Positions 17,483-64,000 of a stretch of 64,000 nt of DNA are shown piece after piece. Numbering within the stretch: position 1 is the first letter of the stretch; every line of letters starts with the position of its first letter. This stretch comes from Escherichia coli. GTDB taxonomy: Bacteria > Pseudomonadota > Gammaproteobacteria > Enterobacterales > Enterobacteriaceae. The notes under the pieces are model-generated. The model was not told where the DNA came from, ran no database searches, and was given only the letters and a program-made list of their open reading frames with translations. Both the position numbers and the translations under genes were made by a program. Location: the NCBI RefSeq assembly GCF_050320075.1, contig NZ_CP190021.1; one strand, given 5' to 3'.

Positions 17483-17770
17483 GACAAAGTCTCCATTTCT
17501 GGAATTTAAATCAAACGGAAAGGTTAAAAATTTATTTGCAGGCGATAAGAGCTAACCAGAGGAATTAGCCGTGTGATAAAAGGATTGTTGCAGATACGAA
17601 AGTCGTTAGAATAGCTGCGGGCGCTTGAGGCTGTATGCCGAAAGCGTTTTGTGGACGGTATACAGCAGAAAGCCCCTGGAGATTTTTTTATCAATCAACC
17701 AAGGGCTCTACTGTAATGCCTAGACAACATTATAGTAGCCCGATAACCGCCGTAAGGCAATGGAGGGGCT

Positions 17771-17926
17771 ATGATGCCACAGCGAACGTTTTTAATGATG
17801 TTAATCGTCATCTGTGTGACGATTCTGTGTTTTGTCTGGATGGTGAGGGATTCGCTTTGCGGACTCCGGCTCCAGCAGGGAAACACAGTGCTTGTGGCAA
17901 CGTTAGCCTACGAAGTTAAACGTTAA
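17771..17926 (+). CDS. pndA: Hok-family type I toxin PndA (51 aa), absent from the ORF track because it is under 60 aa
   Basis: Translation MMPQRTFLMMLIVICVTILCFVWMVRDSLCGLRLQQGNTVLVATLAYEVKR has the Hok/PndA architecture (transmembrane helix plus conserved Cys); GGAGG RBS; an overlapping upstream frame (17635-17919) fits a mok/pndC-like reading frame. Confidence 0.85.
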   Translation: MMPQRTFLMMLIVICVTILCFVWMVRDSLCGLRLQQGNTVLVATLAYEVKR

Positions 17927-17966: not shown

Positions 17967-18402
17967 CGAAGGCTGACCTCATTGCGCCCTTTCTTCTTCA
18001 ATGAAGCGTATCCGGTATTGTTTCATTTCCCCTGAAGCCGATTAGCTCCAGCCGAATGCCTTTGCCATCCGGGGCCACGTTCTGCATTTCGCAGATACCA
18101 CGTCGGGTCATGAGTGTGAAGGCTGTCATTGCCAGCATGGCTAACGCATTTTCCTCGCTTCCGCTGCGTTTCTCGAGAGCATCGGCAATTTATTCTATGC
18201 TCCCCACCTGAAAGCAAGAGTCGAATTCTTTACTCCACTTTTCTGACATCGGATTTTCTCTCTGTATTTATGGGTAGTTATCGAACTGAATGTGCCAGTT
18301 TTTTCAGGAGACGGCAAAGTTGAGATGGTTGGTTCTGATTCAAAGCATGAGTTTCCCCGGTGTGACGGGCATGTCGGGCGGATTTTGAGAAACAACAGAT
18401 GT

Positions 18403-18433
18403 AAAAAAACCGACTGGTGAGGTCGGTTTTTTT
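18403..18433. terminator. bidirectional Rho-independent terminator
   Basis: A-run, hairpin aaccgac-tggtgag-gtcggtt, then T7. Confidence 0.7.
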
Positions 18434-18457
18434 ACTGTTCCGTTACAGAGTGGGTGG

Positions 18458-18489
18458 CTCTGGTCGGAAAAGAACTGTCTATAACTGAC
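18458..18489 (+). repeat. 32-bp direct repeat, copy 1 (ctctggtcggaaaagaactgtctataactgac)
   Basis: Matches 18646-18677 at 31 of 32 positions. Confidence 0.9.
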
Positions 18490-34336: not shown

Positions 34337-37300
34337 TCATCGGCCGGGGCTGTGGGAGAGATCCTGATGCAGAGTTTTTTCCTGCCTGTCCTCCGGCTTT
34401 TGGCTGTTGGACCACTGCTGCCATGACTGCTCGAAGCCCAGGTTCCGGTACAACGCATCAGGTTGTTTTTCCGGCGTGTAGACAGCAGCAAAAAGCGGTT
34501 CTTCCCGGGTTTTCAGATGAAACTGCATAAGCTCCGGTGCGGGGCGATTCGTGCTGTCAGCATCGTGGTTTACCGCTTCACCATAACCTGCAAAGCGTAA
34601 ACCTTTGTCGGTCAGCGCATTGATAACCAACTGACTGTTGTCGGCCGATGGGGTGGCCAGTGCCGGATACAATGTGCCGTTCAGCCGGACCACACCCTGC
34701 AGATGTTCATCGGCACTCTGGACAAGTAGCAGGTTGAGTTCACGCGTATCCTTATCCACTGATCCCAGAACAGGTGTCAGCTTGTCAGGGGCTGCGCTGG
34801 TTATTTCTGTTACCTGATTTGCGTTCTGTGGCGCGGAGACCGGATGTCGGTCTTCACCGATAAACAGATGTGAGCCGACGTTTTCTGGCATACGTAACGC
34901 TTTCATCTCTTCGGGCCACCCCTGGCTGATTTGCGCAGCCACTTTCATAAAGGTTTCGACCGGAATCGCCTGAATACGCTGACCTTTATCCGGATTATCA
35001 TGTGATACCGAGATCCCGTTGGTAACTGACTCCATGGACCACTTATTCCGGAAACGTGCTTTTTGCTCACCAGGGAGAATGAATTGTTCGCGGTTCTGAA
35101 GTGTCAGTGTCACCACGTCACCTTTCTGATGGTTTTTGACCAGACTTTCCAGTTGTTCCCCCCAGTAGAGTTTGCTGCCACTGCGGTTTTTAAGCTCAAC
35201 AAAGAAACTCTCTCCTTTGCCGGGTGCATATTCAGCACGACCAAAATTGTGCAGTACGGCAGTCACGCTCTCTCCCGGGCGAAGTTTTCCTGGTGGTTCT
35301 TCACCTTGTGCCGCATCTGCCGTTTTGCCAGGTTCAGCCGGTGATGATGCAGGGACGGTGCTGACGGTTGATGCTTCAGGGGCAACTGGGGACGCCGGGG
35401 ATTGTGTGGCTTCTTTTTCCTGAACGGGGTCAGGGACAACCGGTTGTTCAGGGGTATTCCGGTTAAGTTCCGGCGTTGGCTGATGGGTGACAACAGCATC
35501 CTTACCGACAGCCATTTCCTTACGTAATGTATCGAGCTCCAGACGCTGATCAGCGTGTTTCATGCGCACATTGATGTTGTGCTCGATAATCAACCGCATC
35601 GCTTTTTGCTTAAAGGCATCACTGCCTGTCAGCTCAATGACGCCACCATAGAAATTAGTGGCCACAGCAAGTGCGGCCAGAACACTGCGATCGTCATTGC
35701 TGGCACCGTCGACCATTTCCAGCCGGTTTACCCGGTCAATGAAGGCTGGTTTGCCATCCAGCTTGTACAGGACGGTTCTGTCTGCTCGTTTTTCACCCTT
35801 CAGTGATTTTATGATTTCGTCCAGATTAAGCGATATCGGTGCATCAGGACGTTCCGGGGCGTAGACAATACTGTCAGGTGTCGGTGTGGTCGTCGTGGTT
35901 TCCGGTGAGGGCGTGGGATCACTGTTCTCATGTGCCTGTGAATCCGTTTTTTTACGCGTAAAAAAGCCACGCGCTTTGTCGAGAAACGATGAAGTATTAT
36001 CAGAAGGTGATGTGCTCTGAACAGGTTGCTGTGGATTGGGTTCATCCCGGACAGCCGGTTCTGCAGTATCTGTTGTGGCCTGAAGTTCTGACTCATCTGC
36101 CTGAACGTGGTCTGTGTCCGGTTGCGACGGCATATCACTGTTTTCCTGCAGATGCTCAGGATTTTCATTGTTCATCAGCTCCTGATATGCGCTGTAGTTT
36201 TCGTATTCTTCGGGGCCATCTGACTCAGGAAGGAACGGCTCTGGCTGAAGGGGAATGTCTTCAGTTACATGGCTGACCGCCTCTTCCCGGGGAGTATCCG
36301 GGGATATTCCGGTGCTTTGTTTGTCATCAGGCTCCGTCATCACGGTCATTTCCTCTTTGACTGCATCAGGGGAAGGTGATGGCTCGGCTGATTCATTCAT
36401 GGTTTCAGATGAGGGACTGTCTTCAGGGGATGCGGGGGCGGCAGCAGGGGCCGGTATTTCAGGTGAAGTGCCGGATTCCTGTTGTGACTCGTTTTTTTCC
36501 GGTTGTGACAGTTCGGCTTCAAATTCACGCCAGTCTTTATCTGTGGCCACCGAGACAACTTTTTCCGGAGGTTCCGCCGGATGAGCGGGTTCATCAGGGG
36601 CAGATGCCGTTGTACTTTCCGGGGACGCCGGTGATTCTGCAGGGGAGTCCTGAACTACAGAGCTTTCCGTTTGCGCCTGAACGTTATCAGCGTGCCGCTC
36701 ATCTTTGCCGTTATTTTCAGTGGCGTGACTGGTAAATGACTGTGTTTCGTCAGCAATGTTACTGCTGGAAGCAGCTGGTTGTTCCTGCTGCGTGGCGGAC
36801 GGCAGAGAAGGTCCCTGGTCATGGCTGTGCCCTGTATCGGGTGATGTTTCAGGATATTCTGTCGGAGTCATGGTTTTTTCCTCAGTGTGGACCGGTGTAA
36901 AAACGAGGTTGCCGATCACCAGTGCCTCGCGGATTTCCGGGGTGTTACTGTTGGGGGTGGAAACCCCGATGTGTTCTAACTGGGCGTTGATGACATGCTG
37001 AAAAGCGGCCCGTCCCCGGCTTGCGTCCAGGTCATTGAAATCGGTCAGCCCCTGCGCTTTTTCGGCATCGGTGAACGCAGGAAAGATGACCGTTCCTCCT
37101 GTCAGTTCTGCGGCTTTTGTTGCACTGACGATACCTTTGTTAACCCGGATTGCATGATCGTTGTCGGCACAGAAGATAAAGGGGCTTTGCGTCCACTTTT
37201 GCCGGGCATTTTCGGCAACGGCAATCATGTTGCCTCCATCCACCGTCATCAGTACCGGAAGGCCCGTGGCTTCGTGCAGGGAGGCCGCAGTGGCATAGCC

Positions 37301-40195: not shown

Positions 40196-41010
40196 CGGGA
40201 GCCTCCTTCAGTGCCTATAAGCGGACGCCAGTGAGATTTCTGAAGATTGAATTCCGCATGATTTTTAAGGCGACGAACACGATCTCCAGTGACCAGTTTT
40301 TTCCCGTCACCTGTAACGGTTTGCATTTGATCAGAAACATCCGGACGGGTGATCATGCCCTGACGCCAGAGAAGTGAGTACAGCATCATGCCCCGGTAAT
40401 CACGGGTGAGGGTTTTCTGGTTGGCTTCAAGCGTCAGGTCGGCGTTTTGTCTTCCTTCCTGCCATCCCTGCCGTAATGCGGTTTCCCACACTTTTCGTTG
40501 CACGCTGTCTTCTGGAACGACGCTGCCTTCTGTACCCGGAGTGGCTGTTGTTGAAAGCCCCCGGAGAAGCCAGTCACGCCAGCCCGGTGGATTGCTGACA
40601 AAGCGTTCAGGGCGAATGATGGTCCAGACCCGGGAAGAGGTCCGGATTTGATCTGGCGTGATATGAGCTACGTCCTGTGCTTCATCAATAACCGGTGGTA
40701 GCCAGCCTTCCGGGCTAATCAGTGGCCGGAAATCGTATAAGGCATTAAGTGTGCTTTCCCGGGCGTTGAGCGCCTGAATCAGCTCCCATGAACGCTGAGC
40801 CTTGCCACCACGAAATCCAAGCGTTTTACCTGCGTCTGTCAGCATTTTCCAGCGTGTTTCTGACAGACTATCCGGCTTTTCACTTCGTGGTTTAAGCCAT
40901 GCATTAATGTCAGGTGGTGGCGTATTGACACCACCTGGCGAGATGGTAGGGGAAGAAGAACAACCAGTAAGCAGTATTACTGGCAAAAGGAGAGAGGTGA
41001 GTGCTTTCAT
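40192..41010 (-). CDS. traI: TraI lipoprotein (DotC-like)
   Basis: Lipoprotein signal LLTGCSS; 272 aa. Confidence 0.8.
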   Translation of the reverse strand: MKALTSLLLPVILLTGCSSSPTISPGGVNTPPPDINAWLKPRSEKPDSLSETRWKMLTDAGKTLGFRGGKAQRSWELIQALNARESTLNALYDFRPLISPEGWLPPVIDEAQDVAHITPDQIRTSSRVWTIIRPERFVSNPPGWRDWLLRGLSTTATPGTEGSVVPEDSVQRKVWETALRQGWQEGRQNADLTLEANQKTLTRDYRGMMLYSLLWRQGMITRPDVSDQMQTVTGDGKKLVTGDRVRRLKNHAEFNLQKSHWRPLIGTEGGSR

Positions 41011-41465
41011 TTTTTCCGGTTCTCCGGCTGCATGAAGCTGACCTGTAACAAGCCCGGATATTGATGGATTGTTGCTCTCCAGGCTGTCTGGGCTTCAATA
41101 AGTCTCAACGTATTGGAAAACGTCATATCCCGGACGTGAAGGTTGACTGGTAACGGCAGGCGGACACCATTGTAGTTAAACTGCATCCCCCTGACTCTGG
41201 CCAGTTCGTTCAGTAATTCAATTGCATCACCTTCCCAGTCAAAGGAAAGGCGATCGCTGTTAGCTGTCAGAAGATGAGACCCCGTTGAAACCGGAAGTTG
41301 GCCGGAAAATACACCTTTGTCCCATAATGTGTACTGAGTGTGCCGGGTAACCGCCACATCAGAGGCAGCACCGTAGTTACGCGGAACAGGAGTATGCTGA
41401 GAAGGGGAGTTGCAGCCAGCCAGAAAAAGGGCGGCAAGACACCCCGCAGGTATAATACGGTTCAT
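41007..41465 (-). CDS. traH: TraH lipoprotein (DotD-like)
   Basis: Lipoprotein signal FLAGCNS; 152 aa. Confidence 0.8.
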   Translation of the reverse strand: MNRIIPAGCLAALFLAGCNSPSQHTPVPRNYGAASDVAVTRHTQYTLWDKGVFSGQLPVSTGSHLLTANSDRLSFDWEGDAIELLNELARVRGMQFNYNGVRLPLPVNLHVRDMTFSNTLRLIEAQTAWRATIHQYPGLLQVSFMQPENRKK

Positions 41466-41671
41466 AATAATTCCTGAGCAGTTAAATCAGAATGGGATAT
41501 ACCGGTGCTCCGGTACAGACAGGATGATGTTTGTTTCCGGCTATACTTGCGTTACCGGAAATAAATGCCAGTGTGGCCAGGTAAATAGCCTCATAGTTTA
41601 CTGAAGGTGATTATTCCTGATACTGGCTGGTTGATGTGTCGTCAGACATAAAACGAATATGAGCGTAATCT

Positions 41672-41798
41672 TTAACGCTCCGCGCCGAATCGATCCATGA
41701 TGGATGACTCGACGATTTATGAATCGAACGTACCGGCGCTTGTCCCTGAAACAGTTCCCGGCCCTCGTCCGGATAACCTGCAATTCAGACAGGCACAT
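41672..41798 (-). promoter_or_regulatory. bipartite conserved leader element, copy A, upstream of traH
   Basis: Box 1 ttaacgctccgcgccgaatcgatccatgatgg and box 2 ctgcaattcagacaggcacat recur at 62169-62292 and 63231-63361. Confidence 0.5.
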
Positions 41799-41859
41799 GT
41801 GCCCGTACACTCTTGTATCTTACTGAGTATATCAGAATTTATGTAAATTCAAATATCCT

Positions 41860-45990: not shown

Positions 45991-46446
45991 GGCGCTCCTA
46001 AAATTCAATTCACAACGCAGACCTACAACATAGCTAAAAACACTCGTAATTTAAGGCTCGGGGTCCATGCATATTGCTCATGGACTTACCTGAATGGCTC
46101 ACCCTTTGGTGGTTTTCAACAGGTATATTCCGACCAAAACAACGTTTGGTATGTGAGTAATTATGCTTGGGGAAATTATGAGTCTGGTGGGACCATATCA
46201 GTCACATGCCTCAATCTTCCTGGTGCTGGAGCTTAATTAAAGGGGCAACAGTAGGCATCGACATGTTCCTCATCAACACCATCACCAATACCGTACATGC
46301 GTGTTCCAGTCATAATGTATCCAGTCGGACATTGAATCGGCTTGTAATAGATCGAACCACCACTCTTACCGCCGATAAAGTGATTCATTGCTACGGATGA
46401 TTTGTACCAATTACATGCTGAGTAATTAATTTTATTACCCCCTGAC

Positions 46447-46465
46447 CACCGACCGGATTGGCACG
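46447..46465 (-). repeat. shufflon sfx repeat 2
   Basis: reverse complement gtgccaatccggtcggtgg. Confidence 0.9.
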
Positions 46466-46472
46466 TAGGCCA

Positions 46473-46491
46473 GTGCCAATCCGGTACTTGG
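46473..46491 (+). repeat. shufflon sfx repeat 3
   Basis: gtgccaatccggtacttgg. Confidence 0.9.
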
Positions 46492-46801
46492 CGTAAAAGC
46501 AATTCTGGTAGTACGGTGATAACTGGTCGTATAGCAAATGGTCAGCAAATACCGCTGCCAACAGGATTTTCTGCCAGTCAGTGCTCATGGAGTGTGAGCA
46601 ATGCAGAAAACCCTCAAGGTTGGAAGCCGAATTACTTTGCAGGATCAGTTGCAACTTATGATGCAAATCGAATTGTTAAATGTGGTTTTTATGATGAATA
46701 CAATTTCCATAAAGGGACATTTAGAGCTGATTTAACCGGAAAATGTAGTTATGTCGTCGCGTGTCAGAACTGAGATTAAATTGCTGGCGCTGCTGGCCTA
46801 C

Positions 46802-46820
46802 GTGCCAATCCGGTACCTGG
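46802..46820 (+). repeat. shufflon sfx repeat 4
   Basis: gtgccaatccggtacctgg. Confidence 0.9.
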
Positions 46821-47307
46821 AGAAAGGTAGGATCTGGTGAGCTTCAAATTGCTACAGCACAGGCCACAGGTTGGCGCTTTCCTGGAGCAACAGCTACTTG
46901 TCCAACTGGAAAACGTGTTACAGGTGGCGGCGGAATATGCACCTCACGAACTGGTTACATATGGCTTACCAGGTCATTCCCATCAGCCAATAACTCATGG
47001 TCGGCTGCGTGCGATACAACCGAAGATCAGAATGGTTCAATAACTGTATATGCCATTTGCCAATAAGCTATTTCAAGCAAGTAATCTTCATAAAGTAGGA
47101 CGAATACTGTGTGTAGTTTTTGGCTTGCCAAGTCATCTCGCCGTTAGAGTCAGGCATGTCAATAGGAACGACTTCTGTTTCTGCCATTTCACGCCCGTCA
47201 ATACGATAGGTGTTAATACACAGTTTAAACCTCCCTAAGACCTGTGTGTTTTTGGGATATAACGTAAATGTTTTTATATTCGTCCATATCGACGCTGATG
47301 ATGATTT

Positions 47308-47326
47308 CCAGGTACCGGATTGGCAC
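47308..47326 (-). repeat. shufflon sfx repeat 5
   Basis: reverse complement gtgccaatccggtacctgg. Confidence 0.9.
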
Positions 47327-47334
47327 GTAGGCCA

Positions 47335-47353
47335 GTGCCAATCCGGTACGTGG
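47335..47353 (+). repeat. shufflon sfx repeat 6
   Basis: gtgccaatccggtacgtgg. Confidence 0.9.
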
Positions 47354-61376: not shown

Positions 61377-61629
61377 GCGAATGTCCTACTGTGAGATGAA
61401 AAGAAGACCGGTATCCGTTCTCTCCGCCACACGTGATGGCACGGGCCGGCCTTTGATAAAACGAATCAATACTCTGGGGTGAAGCCTTTTATTTCTTTCG
61501 CCATTAAGAAATACACGGTTCCATCAAAAGACAGGGGGAGTCCATGGTGGGGATGGCTTCGTGCAGGCTTCACTCCGGAATATTCTCTTGAATTGAAAAA
61601 AGCCCGGCCCGAAGGCCGGGAAATACTGG

Positions 61630-62184
61630 CTATGGGATGTTTACAAGGCGCTCCATAAAGCCGTGATGTTCGGCATTTGATACCAGTTCCAGGAGCAGGG
61701 ATATCCTCGACTCAGGCTGGAGAGTATTTTCCATTCTGAGGAGATACTGATATTGTGCTTTTGTCAGCCATATGCTGGAAGCCGCATTCAGCTCTTCCCT
61801 GGCTCCCGGATTTAGCACAGGGTCCGGGTAAATCTTCATTAATCCATCAACAATATCTTTATTGACGGGTTTTATTTCACCGCCAAACTTCACGAAATCA
61901 ATGAAGGCGCTATGTCGACGTAATGCTGATACTGGGTGAATGTCAAAATTAGCCAGAATAAAAAAGTACCCTGGAAAAATAGCGAATATTCTTTCACGGT
62001 AACAGCACCTGGAGTCTGCCCGTCTTATCTTTCTTGTTATTAATGGAGTCCATGGTACGACGTTTTGCTCATTCAGCCATGAGAATAAAGATTCTCTGTT
62101 TTTGCCGGCTGTATTATATTGCGCAAGATACCAGTTCCGGTTATTCAGGTGTTCTATATTCACGAAGTTCAACGCTCCGCGCAA
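61630..62184 (-). CDS. traB: NusG/RfaH-family specialised transcription antiterminator (TraB/ActX-like)
   Basis: NusG N-terminal-like NWYLAQYN..PGYFFILANFD..FVKFGGE; the track start is a TTG, and a GTG at 62163 with a GGAG RBS is a more likely start. Confidence 0.75.
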   Translation of the reverse strand: MRGALNFVNIEHLNNRNWYLAQYNTAGKNRESLFSWLNEQNVVPWTPLITRKIRRADSRCCYRERIFAIFPGYFFILANFDIHPVSALRRHSAFIDFVKFGGEIKPVNKDIVDGLMKIYPDPVLNPGAREELNAASSIWLTKAQYQYLLRMENTLQPESRISLLLELVSNAEHHGFMERLVNIP

Positions 62185-62292
62185 AACCGATCCATGATGG
62201 ACGATTTTGCGATGTCAGGCGAATATGCTAAATCATATGTCTGAAGCAGTGTCCAGCCCATATCTGGATAAACTGCAGTTCTGACAGGCATA
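62169..62292 (-). promoter_or_regulatory. bipartite conserved leader element, copy B, at the traB start
   Basis: Box 1 tcaacgctccgcgcaaaaccgatccatgatgg, box 2 ctgcagttctgacaggcatat. Confidence 0.5.
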
Positions 62293-62604
62293 TAACCAGC
62301 AGACTCTAGTACGTTCTGTATCGGTGATTTGGCGAACTCACAGATAAAGAACGGCTAAGCACTAATATCAGCAATACAGTGGCACAGTATTGTGATACGC
62401 GAAATAAAACATCAGCACGTCAGTTCAGAGTAAGGTCGCCATATATCGGGCATGAGCCAGATACAAATAACTGGGACACCGTCTGAAGTGATTTGCTTTA
62501 TTAAAGTAACTTGTGCTTGGTGTTTATGTTTATCAATTTGGGATCGCCTGTAAAGTGCAAAATGCAATTTCCATGAAAGTGTCCCCTTTAATGGGGACAC
62601 CTGT

Positions 62605-62892
62605 TCACATTTTTTCGTTTTCTTTAGCTGTATTGCTAATCATGAAAACGAAAGTTCGCATCAGCACAGCAGAGCGAAGTGCATCATATCCTTCCAGATT
62701 TAAATTCTTCAGGCTTCGCTTCAGGTAGGTTCGTACCGTTTCGGGAGAAAGCCGACAGTTCTGAGCAATGGCGTCGTAAGGAACACCCATTGCGTAAAAA
62801 ACGCAGACTTTAAGCTGGTTTGTTGATAGCTCGGGAAACATGCCTTCCAACAGAGTGATGGCCGGGAGTTTCTGTATCAGTTGAGGTGACAT
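62605..62892 (-). CDS. traA: LuxR/FixJ-type HTH transcriptional regulator (TraA-like)
   Basis: C-terminal HTH pattern LSTNQLKVCVFYAMGVPYDAIAQNCRLSPETVRTYLKRSLKNL; ATG 62892 with GGAG RBS preferred over the TTG at 62913. Confidence 0.6.
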   Translation of the reverse strand: MSPQLIQKLPAITLLEGMFPELSTNQLKVCVFYAMGVPYDAIAQNCRLSPETVRTYLKRSLKNLNLEGYDALRSAVLMRTFVFMISNTAKENEKM

Positions 62893-63230
62893 AGCAAAGG
62901 TCTCCGATGACAACTAAAAACGCTATCACCGAGTTCCTACGCTCATTGGTGATAGCCCAGACGGGGGTAGGAATACCGGCGTCATCGGAAACCGGCCAGG
63001 CTAATGCCTGCCCCGCCTGAGCTACCATAGATGACGACAAGAAATACAAGTTCCTGTCTTTATGGTATGGCAAAAAACGACGCCAAATGAAGAAATTAAC
63101 TTCTGCGCCGACGATGACTACGCGGGTTCCTACGCCCGATCACAGTTTTGCCTGTGACCAGTAAAGGGTACTTAGTATAACGCACCGAGTCAACTAACAG
63201 CTTAAAAAACATACAAAAAAGCGTCAAAAC

Positions 63231-63361
63231 TTAACGCTCCGCGCCGAAGCGATCCAGGCATGATGCTTCTGCTTTGTGGCGTTCGAACATGCTGGTCCAT
63301 ATGCACGAAACGGTGTCTGACCCTCGTCCAGACAATCCGCAGTTCTGACGAACATATGAAC
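63231..63361 (-). promoter_or_regulatory. bipartite conserved leader element, copy C, upstream of traA
   Basis: Box 1 ttaacgctccgcgccgaagcgatcca, box 2 ccgcagttctgacgaacatat. Confidence 0.5.
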
Positions 63362-63884
63362 AAATATGCTCTTGTAGAGGCTGTTGTTACACAATTGGCG
63401 GGTTGTGTAACAAATGGTTTTATCATCTAAGAATCATTCTATTTACGATCGAATGATCTACAAAATGATTTTTTAAAGGTTATTTAGATCGTTTAATTGC
63501 ATTAAAACAGAATATTATTCTGTTAGGTAGATCGGTTGTAAGATAAATGATCGTGAGTAGGATAAAAGTCGATCTTTTAATCCAAAAGAAAGATCTAAAG
63601 CAGAAAAATCTGCTTTTAAAAATAGATTTTATTTTTTTGACGCAGGTCAAGATTAACTTATTAGAGGTATCAGTGAGGAGGCACTGGAAGAGAAGAGATC
63701 GTTGTAATGCTTTTCAAATTAACGTAAAGCGGGTATATTTCGGCTGTTATTAGCTGTGCAGAGGGTGGCACTCTGTGGAGCAAAGCGGCGAAAGCCGGAC
63801 GGCAGAATGCGCCATAAGGCATTCAGGAGAGATGGCATGTACGGGCAGTAAGTCAGAAGACTGAAGATGTTCCGGAAGCCATAA

Positions 63885-63950
63885 AAGGAAAACCCCCACT
63901 ATCTTTCTTACGAACTTGGCGGAACGACGAAAGATAGTGGGGGCCTCACA
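63885..63950 (-). ncRNA. candidate antisense Inc RNA of an IncI/IncB-type replicon, complementary to the repZ-leader stem-loop I; rep genes would lie beyond the window end
   Basis: + strand stem cccccactatcttt / aaagatagtggggg (63893-63943) with a 23-nt loop containing TTGGCG, the recalled target-loop motif of ColIb-P9-type copy control. Confidence 0.4.
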
Positions 63951-64000
63951 GAATACGGGTAAAGTATAATGAAACCGTACCAGAGATTCAACCCTGTGCA

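Follow-up and report, generated by a model that had tools for sequence, protein, structure and literature searches.

In the immunity system of satellite phage P4, which controls phage replication genes, the CI RNA and its targets seqA and seqC bring about premature transcription termination and a translational block (PMC4825925); the promoter is followed by an upstream target, the RNA, a downstream target hairpin and a second target over the first ribosome-binding site. The immI region of phages P1 and P7 encodes the C4 RNA (Rfam family RF01695) with its a1/b1 and a2/b2 targets and icd-ant, two-site (a, b) recognition being duplicated on both sides of the RNA. RNase P and other nucleases trim primary transcripts of this family to a stable RNA of about 77-80 nt. 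Citron and Schuster are said to have found in 1990 that the downstream C4 target of P1 overlaps the ribosome-binding site of the first gene. The Salmonella Gifsy-1 RNA IsrK (STnc1160), an activating small RNA that acts on its own long isoform, is a structural homologue of P4 SeqA (PMC4825925). Among NusG paralogs, RfaH has the ops site (GCGGTAGC), and PrfaH (ActX), which IncX plasmids carry and need for transfer, acts at a small hairpin of the non-template strand, within the 5' untranslated region of its own gene (PMC11880322). The 64-kb window examined here, by which we mean the whole stretch of DNA analysed, corresponds to the transfer region of an IncI1 plasmid. Two distinct regulatory devices lie between its replication region and traB; one brings a known RNA family into a new role, and the other is a previously undescribed leader. 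An antisense-RNA module and a TraB-loading leader are, in our judgement, rather probable as the best explanation of the locus.

The features considered here are meaningful on the minus strand, which is the sense strand for traA and traB, and all coordinates below refer to it. The first device lies upstream of traA (62605..62892), which encodes a 95-aa helix-turn-helix regulator of the sigma-70 region 4/LuxR type (Pfam and RefSeq; Sigma70_r4_2 E = 7e-6, GerE E = 2e-4). The RNA gene (62945..63032) belongs to the C4/CI family: the RF01695 covariance model scored 77.5 bits, the gathering score being 45, and aligned over model positions 1-87 of 87, and the terminal stem and two inner hairpins of the family are present. 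The predicted fold (-48.6 kcal/mol) comprises a long, tRNA-like terminal stem, an a' loop (UUUCCGAUGACG; a' segment CCGAUGAC), a b' segment left single-stranded (UUCCUAC) and CACCA at the 3' end. With its downstream hairpin, the RNA is 82% identical to phage P4 cI over 116 nt. It lies on the same strand as traA, 53 nt upstream of the ATG and downstream of a conserved TTGACT-17-TAnnCT; here the putative module promoter, read from the sequence, is TTGACT, 17 nt, TACCCT (63165..63193), with equivalents in two diverged plasmid lineages (TTGACT-17-TAGTCT in L003 and TTGACT-17-TAGCCT in L004), and a consensus promoter scan did not call it. In an Rfam scan of seven sources (the window and L002-L007), C4 was found in all four that have traA and in none of the three that lack it.

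The module runs in the order promoter, b1/a1, terminator-like hairpin, RNA, b2/a2 and traA. The upstream, seqA-like target pair (63112..63171) consists of a hairpin with a b1 loop (GUAGGAA, 63127-63133) followed by a1 (GUCAUCG, 63112-63118, read from the sequence); it scored 32.9 bits with c4-a1b1 (RF03163) and 31.6 bits with isrK (RF01394), both under the gathering scores, and in L003 the isrK model reached the gathering threshold at the equivalent position. A terminator-like hairpin with U6 (63072..63111) separates a1 from the RNA gene and, apart from an insertion of 21 nt, aligns to the terminator of isrK. L003 and L004 have clean intrinsic terminators at the matching position, and RNAfold gave no clean stem at 63072..63111, which indicates a weak terminator in this plasmid. 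Downstream of the RNA, target a2 (UGUCAUCGGAGACC, 62901..62914) includes the traA Shine-Dalgarno sequence GGAG (62902-62905), 9 nt before the ATG at 62892, so that the downstream target overlaps the ribosome-binding site.

The a' loop pairs with a2 over 14 consecutive positions, G-U wobbles counted, compared with 9 pairs at the equivalent place in both P4 and L003; the duplex energy is -28.8 kcal/mol against -15.6 +/- 2.7 for shuffled RNA, and none of 500 shuffles equalled it. In addition, a' pairs with a1 over 7 nt, and b' pairs with b1 and with b2 over 7 nt each. Loop and target covary: b'/b2 complementarity is perfect in four lineages (IncI1, P4, L003 and L004) that carry three sequence variants, the b'/b2 duplex energy by itself being no better than that of shuffles. 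The target search for a' and b' was restricted to loops, as whole-sequence duplex prediction unfolds the RNA and is uninformative, and b'/b2 was the only pairing readable directly on the MAFFT alignment, in which gap placement spoiled the pair counts for a'/a2 and for the hairpin. We have high confidence, as far as sequence can tell, in a P4/P1-type antisense-RNA module upstream of traA.

The hairpin on which the original prediction rested is a component of this module. Its 9-bp arms are real (GCUAUCACC and GGUGAUAGC), and the element extends over 62922..62956 with a 17-nt loop rather than ending at 62955. The window contains 71 inverted repeats with arms of at least 9 bp and a spacing of at most 25 nt, and the hairpin alone is thus not beyond chance; its significance comes from its conservation with compensatory changes in phage P4 and three diverged plasmid lineages. 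In the alignment, P4, L003 and L004 keep a hairpin of this type with arms changed compensatorily, A-U being replaced by G-C in P4. Its 5' arm doubles as the 3' strand of the terminal stem of the C4 RNA, and the loop contains the seqC-like target b2 (GUAGGAA, 62934-62940).

As in P4, a promoter, an upstream target, the RNA, a downstream target hairpin and a second target over the first ribosome-binding site follow one another, and the RNA lies upstream of the controlled gene on the same strand and ends in CACCA (CGCCA in the other system). Unlike in P4, the controlled gene is the conjugation regulator traA, b' reads UUCCUAC rather than UUCUCAC, a2 pairing is longer (14 versus 9), and the module is flanked by two plasmid leader copies; processing and termination would follow the P4 pattern only by analogy. 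The RF01695 match and the two-site recognition duplicated on both sides are shared with P1/P7 immI, whereas similarity to phages of the P1 type is lower (72% over about 90 nt to phage RCS47, which we take to be P1-like) and no icd/ant homologue lies downstream. The upstream part, with two hairpins and a terminator, fits the isrK model, yet we saw no sign in IncI1 of an activating RNA of the IsrK kind. In a search of the freely accessible literature, we found no paper linking a C4/CI RNA to IncI1 or to traA.

The module coincides with a region known from genetics. The Hft region of the IncI1 plasmid pESBL (pESBL-EA11, 35394-35663) corresponds to window positions 62915-63184, and this 270-bp region upstream of traA makes 'superspreaders' when struck by a transposon or a single base change. 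Transposon insertions in Hft raise transfer about 20-fold (PMC4288162) and traA::lacZ about 50-fold (PMC5801416), and one point change does the same as the insertions (traA::lacZ about 50-fold, transfer about 20-fold; PMC5801416, PMC4288162). Deletion of Hft abolishes traA::lacZ expression (PMC5801416), which supports the putative module promoter. TraA regulates traB and transfer positively: its overexpression raises transfer and traB::lacZ (PMC5801416). The published work left the mechanism of Hft open ('small RNA ... future investigations') and did not name a C4/CI-type RNA (PMC4288162, PMC5801416); the antisense-RNA immunity reading offers a concrete mechanism. This reading also explains where two classical changes of the derepressed plasmid R64drd-11 fall within Hft, namely in the RNA stem and in the hairpin. 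In the comparison with R64 (NC_005014), three changes are specific to R64drd-11 (63021, 62931 and 62718), and the window has the wild-type base at all three. The change at 63021 lies in the RNA stem and shifts the minimum free energy from -48.6 to -41.8; the substitution at 62931 lies in the hairpin loop, in the extended b2 pairing; and that at 62718 creates a traA stop. We infer which of 63021 and 62931 is the published 'X2' mutation.

The genetics of Hft are not fully accounted for by an antisense-RNA module. The middle zone of Hft is not enriched for insertions, and the pESBL X1X2X3 triple mutant is not derepressed (PMC4288162, PMC5801416). Deletion of traA in pESI, a relative of pESBL, increased conjugation 2.5-fold (PMC5013300), in contrast to the positive role of traA in pESBL.

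By analogy with P4 CI and P1 C4, we propose that the promoter at about 63165-63193 starts a minus-strand transcript that would carry b1, a1, the weak terminator, the RNA of about 88 nt, b2/a2 and traA, and that the small RNA would be cut out of this leader. Its a' loop and single-stranded b' may then pair with the targets on later transcripts, and this pairing would block traA translation and promote premature termination, keeping TraA low and transfer repressed. Hft insertions or the R64drd-11 changes would damage the RNA or its targets and release TraA, and the released TraA would raise traB expression and transfer. That the RNA is processed, that it pairs with its targets in the cell and that its effect is repressive are presumed here from the phage systems.

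The second device is a direct repeat of about 145 nt. The original prediction concerned two copies, B and C, and both are real, as is a third, copy A. The 12-mer AACGCTCCGCGC occurs three times in the 64-kb window (41674, 62171 and 63233), once per copy, and an nhmmer profile of the element found exactly these three sites in the window, in the same orientation, with E = 1e-50 to 6e-53. Copies B and C are alignable over about 165 nt with about 68-77% identity. Copy A (41674..41817, with GCGGAGC at 41677-41683) lies upstream of the lipoprotein gene traH (41007-41465), the first of a long minus-strand run of tra genes that we read as one operon, and has a terminator-like hairpin at 41661-41680. 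Copy B (62171..62311, GCGGAGC at 62174-62180) had been described as overlapping the traB translation start, which is not the case: its conserved end at 62171 is 7 nt upstream of the GTG at 62163. This GTG is the RefSeq start, in agreement with the conserved N-terminus M-N-I-E of the homologues, and the repeat contains only a mechanical TTG start (62184) of the traB open reading frame. Copy C (63233..63376, 5' box TACAAGAG, GCGGAGC at 63236-63242) lies upstream of the module promoter, and its 3' end is 340 nt upstream of the traA ATG, slightly further than the 320 bp or so first given. A terminator-like hairpin (AGCGU..ACGCU with a U-rich tract, 63218..63240), whose z-score is not significant, overlaps the 3' motif of copy C. 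Because a separate putative promoter sits between copy C and traA, this copy is not simply a traA leader.

Each leader consists of a 5' box, (T/G)ACAAGA(G/A), which is nearly invariant, a stem-loop of about 90 nt with about 19 covarying basal pairs, a second hairpin, and GCG(G/A)AGC, a core that is invariant in 12 of 12 leaders with variable flanks. In an alignment of these 12 sequences, 90.9% of cells pair, against 33-45% when the partners are slid, with 14 two-sided pair changes against 4-7; such pairing values were reached in 0 of 500 shuffles. The covariation of the basal stem indicates that the element is present in single-stranded form, and about 15% of paired cells are G-U; since these would read A-C on the opposite strand, the sense strand is favoured. 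One copy is found immediately upstream of traB in every relative, down to about 52-54% TraB identity, and no element was detectable at the Cedecea TraB relative (43% identity) or the Spirochaetaceae match. The IncK/Z plasmids and the 53% relatives have this copy only and none before traH, and so the leader is not needed at every long operon. Rfam gave no match at any leader copy when the whole window was scanned at gathering score, including JUMPstart (RF01707), and no leader-family match at copy C with E up to 1. A consensus scan found nothing convincing as a promoter upstream of the leader copies, and candidates read by hand differ among them. With moderate confidence, we regard the element as a structured 5' leader that is presumably transcribed.

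The gene beside copy B, traB (61630..62163), encodes a NusG/RfaH paralog of 177 aa, as judged by Pfam, PDB match and RefSeq product name: the Pfam NusG match (E = 5e-4, 21 bits) is just under the 22.2-bit cut-off, and the best PDB match is 9ik0_A, 'transcription antitermination protein RfaH' (E = 6e-12). TraB is required for transfer (PMC5013300, PMC4288162) and for pil transcription (PMC5013300). The 3' end of the leader (GGCG-CGG-AGCGT) has partial likeness to ops (GGCG-GT-AGCGT), and the candidate TraB site, given as the non-template-strand sequence around GCGGAGC, is TTCGGCGCGGAGCGTTAA. None of the leader copies matched the ops consensus tested (GGCGGTAGnnTG), even when one mismatch was allowed, and the 64-kb window contains no canonical ops, for which reason host RfaH is unlikely to serve here. 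The hairpin formed by d(GCGAAGC) is exceptionally stable. Modelling suggests that GCG(G/A)AGC on the non-template DNA strand can form an ops-like mini-hairpin of three bases closed by C-G; the predicted single-stranded DNA fold is ((((...)))) for the leader motif and (((....))) for ops, with energies no better than those of shuffles. In several relatives, GGAG within the motif could simply be the traB Shine-Dalgarno sequence.

The strand and position of the motif fit a non-template leader site upstream of long gene runs, in three copies. As with ops/RfaH and IncX PrfaH, a short G+C-rich motif, predicted to form a mini-hairpin, lies in the sense orientation in what would be the leader of a long gene run acquired horizontally; it also adjoins the gene of a plasmid-borne NusG paralog needed for transfer, and PrfaH likewise has its site ahead of its own gene. 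Unlike the ops and IncX sites, from which it differs in sequence, the motif sits inside a covarying element of about 145 nt that occurs in three paralogous copies, two of them overlapping a terminator-like hairpin; it is unusual for a covarying structure of the RNA type to be combined with a DNA motif that resembles ops. We suggest that TraB would load at GCG(G/A)AGC of the leader copies, and that polymerase modified by TraB would pass the terminator-like hairpins that follow copies A and C and continue along the long pil/tra runs. If true, the leader would be the first recruitment site to be proposed for NusG paralogs of the IncI TraB family. The layered transcriptional control of the regulatory genes themselves that had been foreseen is partly supported, as post-initiation layering by another mechanism than the one envisaged. 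Antitermination is plausible for the repeats, given the ops-like 3' motif and the neighbouring NusG/RfaH paralog gene, and attenuation was right in spirit, since P4-type RNAs cause premature termination and a translational block (PMC4825925).

Other explanations are less probable. The hairpin before traA might be an intrinsic terminator or attenuator relieved by an antiterminator conformation or factor: its 9-bp stem is followed by GUUUUUAG, and in one predicted fold its 3' arm pairs alternatively with the a2/Shine-Dalgarno region, which would permit mutually exclusive structures. The loop of 17 nt is long for this role, the consensus terminator scan did not call the hairpin, and the U-run is absent in P4, L003 and L004 while the hairpin stays; a G+C-rich stem, a short loop and a U-tract, all conserved, are thus not found together. 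The 5' arm belongs to the C4 RNA and the loop carries a covarying antisense target, and we consider a stand-alone attenuator, as originally proposed, very unlikely. Coding interpretations fare worse still. Open reading frames ending in ..DRF(G/C)AER* occur in 3 of 3 IncI1 copies, with variation among copies that seemed synonymous, and Pfam Phage_ASH matches 62810-63073 (E = 8e-10), the Hp1/'Ash family' protein over the hairpin. An ATG is present in only about half of the 12 leaders, however, one-base indels put IncK/Z and the L006 group in another frame, and hairpin 2 accounts for the conserved GGATC, which forms its 3' arm; on these grounds, and with no conserved start among the 12 sequences, a leader peptide ..DRFGAER* was rejected. 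Overexpression of Hp1, whose open reading frame overlaps Hft, has no effect (PMC5801416), and the matching P4 reading frame (the putative ash gene or cI gene product of GenBank) overlies the CI RNA (PMC4825925). If the region is read as a P4/P1-type antisense-RNA module, the 'Ash/Hp1' annotation probably does not mark a real gene, and peptide products as the basis of either device are extremely improbable.

For the repeats, we think it rather unlikely that they are DNA promoter or operator regions for TraA (or TraC), with the 5' box and the inverted symmetry as protein sites. Control of traB has been attributed to TraA acting on a 54-bp upstream region (PMC5801416), possibly within or close to copy B. 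Supplied in trans, TraA increases traB::lacZ expression only if 54 bp ahead of a predicted promoter are included, and the effects of TraA overexpression are broader than those of TraBC overexpression (PMC5801416). The near-invariant 5' box would suit such a site; yet leader and box are equally conserved where traA is absent (IncK/Z, L006, L013, L014 and L007), and the stem covaries rather than keeping its sequence, with strand-specific G-U pairs that point to a folded single strand. The operator and TraB-loading ideas are compatible, as a promoter could sit at the 5' edge of the leader. An RNA element unlinked to TraB, such as a 5' stabilizer, an RNase III site, a put-type antiterminator RNA or, at copy C, a small RNA or decoy, would suit the strong RNA-type covariation, the terminator-like hairpin that ends copy C ahead of the next promoter and a preliminary effect of hfq on traA and traBC expression (PMC5801416). 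It remains an unlikely candidate, accounting neither for the invariant GCG(G/A)AGC, always equally spaced from the preceding hairpin 2, nor for the constant place directly before the NusG-paralog gene in all lineages, and no Rfam family matches. Single-stranded DNA hairpins used after transfer, as Frpo-type promoters or priming signals, were considered in view of the long imperfect one-strand hairpins and the use of such promoters by IncI1 plasmids (PMC12672017). The six mapped pESBL single-stranded promoters drive leading-region genes, and transfer genes are not induced early (PMC12672017); the leader copies lie in the tra/pil region, with the element fixed beside the traB start in all relatives, and, from the sense of the tra genes as given by gene orientation, the folded leader strand could not template them. 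We rejected this candidate on its location and on published mapping (PMC12672017), and it is scarcely credible.

Returning to the preferred combination of an antisense-RNA module and a TraB-loading leader, one may speculate further that IncI1 fertility is a two-state switch built from two borrowed devices, a P4-type RNA that holds traA off and TraB feedback, although we regard this extension as fairly improbable. The RNA would then underlie the repressed state, and it would explain both the drd-11 mutation and the 'superspreader' insertions in Hft. After TraA had escaped repression and switched on traB, TraB would load at the ops-like ends of the three leader copies. At copy C, TraB-modified polymerase would pass the leader terminator, the seqA terminator and RNA-imposed termination, and positive feedback on traA and traB could lock a minority of cells in the transfer-proficient state. 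IncI1 plasmids are major vehicles for the spread of ESBL and AmpC resistance, and a search of a plasmid collection returned the matching region in more than 1,400 plasmid records.

The region upstream of traA encodes a member of a known antisense RNA family in a new setting. In an Rfam scan, the C4 antisense RNA family gave a full-length match at 62945-63032 on the minus strand, the sense strand of the tra genes (77.5 bits; threshold, 45), and a permissive scan placed sub-threshold matches to the model 'a1, b1 targets of C4' and to isrK just upstream of this RNA, at 63073-63171. The 3' strand of the terminal stem of the RNA is at the same time the 5' arm (GCUAUCACC) of the inverted repeat before traA, and the loop of that hairpin contains GUAGGAA, which is complementary to the single-stranded UUCCUAC of the RNA (b'); the heptamer is present again upstream, in a small hairpin loop (b1). 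Moreover, the loop of the RNA's second hairpin (a', GGUUUCCGAUGACG) could pair over 14 consecutive positions with UGUCAUCGGAGACC (a2), a target that includes the traA Shine-Dalgarno sequence, 9 nt before the ATG. The predicted a'/a2 duplex has an energy of -28.8 kcal/mol compared with -15.6 ± 2.7 kcal/mol for shuffled sequences, none of 500 being as good.

The best phage-genome match in a DNA search was satellite phage P4 (82% identity over 116 nt), at a locus annotated 'cI' or 'putative ash gene', followed by the linear plasmid-prophages PY54 and phiKO2 and by phage RCS47, which we take to be P1-like. Four features are shared between P4 and the aligned IncI1 sequence: the RNA itself, the hairpin downstream of it (whose stem shows a compensatory A-U to G-C change), the target in the hairpin loop and another target that covers the first ribosome-binding site. 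Because the P4 CI RNA, once processed from an untranslated leader, base-pairs with seqA and seqC and so causes premature termination (PMC4825925), the hairpin before traA is best interpreted, from its sequence, as the seqC/b2 target stem-loop of a P4-type module and not as a free-standing attenuator. The original prediction of layered, post-initiation control thus stands, but the attenuator role that it gave to this hairpin does not. The hairpin is real, although it spans 62922-62956 (9 + 17 + 9 nt) rather than ending at 62955, and on its own it is unremarkable, as the window contains 71 inverted repeats of its size class. Against a free-standing attenuator, the U-run is missing in P4 and in two diverged plasmid relatives (L003 and L004). 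The hairpin and the RNA's own terminal stem are mutually exclusive.

The 3' arm of the hairpin also has an alternative pairing with the a2/Shine-Dalgarno region. At 62901-62930 (minus strand), this arm (GGUGAUAGC) can pair with GUUGUCAUCGG instead, which hides a2 together with some of the traA Shine-Dalgarno sequence and is the minimum-energy fold when the 5' half of the RNA is absent. In addition, CGUCAUC at 63030-63036 (minus strand), the exact complement of GAUGACG in the a' loop, lies across the 5' boundary of the RNA match, which begins with the final three bases of this heptamer, and may be a third a-type site.

The module is also present upstream of the traA homologue in L003, L004 and L005, plasmid lineages in which TraB is only ~53% identical. 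Between lineages, b' and b2 have changed together (UUCCUAC/GUAGGAA, UUCUCAC/GUGAGAA and UUUCCAC/GUGGAAA), as have the a' loop and its targets. Relatives without traA (IncK/Z, L006 and L007) gave no C4 match, which indicates that the RNA and traA travel as one cassette. In L003 (48400-48360) and L004 (24920-24740, minus strand), the ribosome-binding site that a2 overlaps belongs to a short ORF (MLKNLSKNSQSPLSK in L003, MAATALFL... in L004) and not to traA, whose start lies ~190 nt beyond; the MAAT start in L004 resembles the MATT of the ORF after the RNA in P4.

The RNA module offers a mechanism for a published, unexplained hotspot. In the IncI1 plasmid pESBL-EA11, 95% of post-mating transposon reads fell within 270 bp between traA and repY, termed Hft (pESBL-EA11 coordinates 35394-35663); insertions there raised transfer ~20-fold, and deletion lowered it ~10-fold (Yamaichi et al., PMC4288162). 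With traA as the anchor (pESBL 35084-35371, window 62605-62892), Hft corresponds to 62915-63184, from the hairpin through the -10 region of the putative promoter of the module. Poidevin et al. found that an Hft insertion raised traA::lacZ ~50-fold and that Hft deletion abolished it, that TraA overexpression raised both transfer and traB::lacZ, and that a single R64drd-11-specific base change, X2, suffices for the superspreader phenotype; small RNAs were mentioned only as future work (PMC5801416). We compared the window with pESBL and with the R64 record in GenBank (drd-11 according to PMC5801416) and counted exactly seven differences in ~600 bp, three of them within Hft, in agreement with that report. 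Only at 63021, 62931 and 62718 in traA-Hft (62605-63184) does R64 (drd-11) differ from both other sequences, and the window carries the wild-type (repressed) base at each. The change at 63021, in the 5' strand of the RNA terminal stem, weakens the predicted fold from -48.6 to -41.8 kcal/mol; that at 62931, the last loop base of the hairpin, removes an extension of the b'/b2 pairing; and that at 62718 turns a traA CGA codon into TGA. Judging from the numbering order, we infer that X2 is 63021 or 62931, either of which lies inside the module. Some published results fit the module poorly: the middle zone of Hft lacks insertion enrichment and the pESBL X1X2X3 triple mutant is not derepressed (PMC4288162, PMC5801416), and in pESI traA deletion slightly raised conjugation (PMC5013300).

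Protein and single-stranded DNA explanations were also considered. An 87-aa ORF at 62810-63073 (minus strand) overlaps the C4/CI-type RNA, matches Pfam Phage_ASH (E = 8e-10) and appears as 'ash family protein' in many records and as Hp1 in pESBL. Ash gives the Pfam family its name, and in GenBank the P4 ORF at the cI locus is annotated as a putative ash gene or cI product. As this matching P4 ORF overlies the sequence now recognised as the CI RNA, and as overexpression of Hp1, the ORF overlapping Hft, had no effect (PMC5801416), the ash/Hp1 coding sequence is probably spurious, and an Ash/Hp1 protein was rejected as the effector. Single-stranded DNA promoters were set aside as lying in the wrong region and not being induced early (PMC12672017), and a leader peptide ending DRFGAER* was discarded for want of a conserved start and a stable frame.

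The direct repeats reported around traA, copies B (62171-62311) and C (63233-63376), proved genuine, aligning over ~165 nt, and a third copy, A, lies at 41674-41817 (all read on the minus strand, with bounds from the conserved ends). Copy B does not overlap the traB start as had been claimed, but ends 7 nt short of the real GTG at 62163. The window contains the 12-mer AACGCTCCGCGC exactly three times, and a profile built from the copies found only these sites in it. Among TraB homologues gathered from the plasmid collection and species-representative genomes, all relatives with a TraB identity of at least ~52-54% have one copy directly upstream of traB; two further copies, A ahead of traH and C ahead of the RNA module, are confined to IncI1 proper. 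IncK/Z plasmids lack both traA and the RNA module, and the one leader they have borders on the replication region, the position that copy C takes in IncI1, an arrangement that would fit cassette loss or gain through recombination between direct repeats.

A 12-sequence alignment of the leader showed conservation of a 5' box, (T/G)ACAAGA(G/A), of both strands of a long stem and of GGATC, the 3' arm of the second hairpin, with GCG(G/A)AGC invariant. In the 19-pair basal stem predicted by RNAalifold, 90.9% of cells pair, compared with 33-45% after sliding the partners by 1-3 columns, and 14 pairs show two-sided changes, compared with 4-7 after sliding; none of 500 shuffles reached the observed values. 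The stem top varies between lineages. G-U pairs make up ~15% of paired cells and would be A-C on the opposite strand, which argues that the sense strand is the one that folds. Rfam scans of the window matched no family to the leader, and we regard it as a previously undescribed structured element whose end resembles ops. Neither this reading nor that of the RNA module was found in the searchable literature, most subscription journals lying outside its scope.

We propose that the leader motif is a loading site for TraB, a protein annotated as NusG-family and needed for pil transcription and transfer (PMC5013300, PMC4288162). Among solved structures, the best relative of TraB was deposited under the name RfaH (9ik0_A, E = 6e-12); the value for E. 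coli RfaH itself was about 0.05-0.06. The IncI motif, GGCG-CGG-AGCGT, compares with GGCG-GT-AGCGT in ops, of which no canonical example occurs in the window, and its sequence permits a mini-hairpin closed by C-G around a G-N-A loop, although the energy is not distinctive. The ~53% relatives carry the variant GCGAAGC, a famously stable DNA mini-hairpin. The motif is placed relative to traB as the site of the IncX paralog PrfaH is relative to its gene, in whose 5' UTR another small hairpin is the site of PrfaH action (PMC11880322). A terminator-like hairpin (AGCGU..ACGCU) with a U-rich tract after it overlaps the motif in copies A and C and would give TraB something to read through, and the distance of about 12 nt from the end of hairpin 2 to the GUU after the motif might reflect the geometry of a hairpin-stabilised pause. 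However, relatives manage with a single leader copy, the GGAG within the motif may also serve some lineages as the ribosome-binding site of traB, and TraA-dependent activation via a 54-bp region may map to the leader element (PMC5801416). A scan of the upstream sequence found no convincing promoter for the leader copies. GCGAAGC also lies inside traA (62713-62719, minus strand), where the drd-11 stop mutation at 62718 hits it; this is probably coincidence, because the window contains 17 such heptamers.

More than 1,300 IncI1/IncI-gamma plasmids from E. coli, Salmonella and Shigella share 99-100% identity with the region 61400-63450, and ColIb-P9 matches 62580-63420 at 100% identity. On the minus strand, traA (62605-62892), which encodes a small HTH protein, is followed by traB (61630-62163) and, further down, by traC, traD and the pil genes. 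RefSeq uses the GTG at 62163, and the M-N-I-E N-terminus conserved among homologues starting with ATG, GTG or TTG supports it. In the IncK2/Z plasmid pL2-87, the RefSeq NusG-family coding sequence (46349-46990, 213 aa) extends across the leader element, and comparison with homologues suggests a true start at the TTG at about 46852. A hairpin (GUGUCCCC/GGGGACAC) directly follows the traA stop codon at 62580-62602; because L003 and L004 have clean intrinsic terminators at the equivalent position, traB probably needs its own promoter between there and copy B. Between copy C and the replication control region lie an 11-bp perfect inverted repeat (TTGTTACACAA/TTGTGTAACAA, 63384-63413) and a GATC-rich stretch (~63440-63640), similar to one before the single leader of pL2-87 (about 47100-47340). 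Above the Rfam threshold, the window also contains a repZ pseudoknot cut by the window end (63885-64000, plus strand), the sok antitoxin RNA (17619-17776, plus strand) and the AgrB antisense RNA (18401-18488, minus strand).
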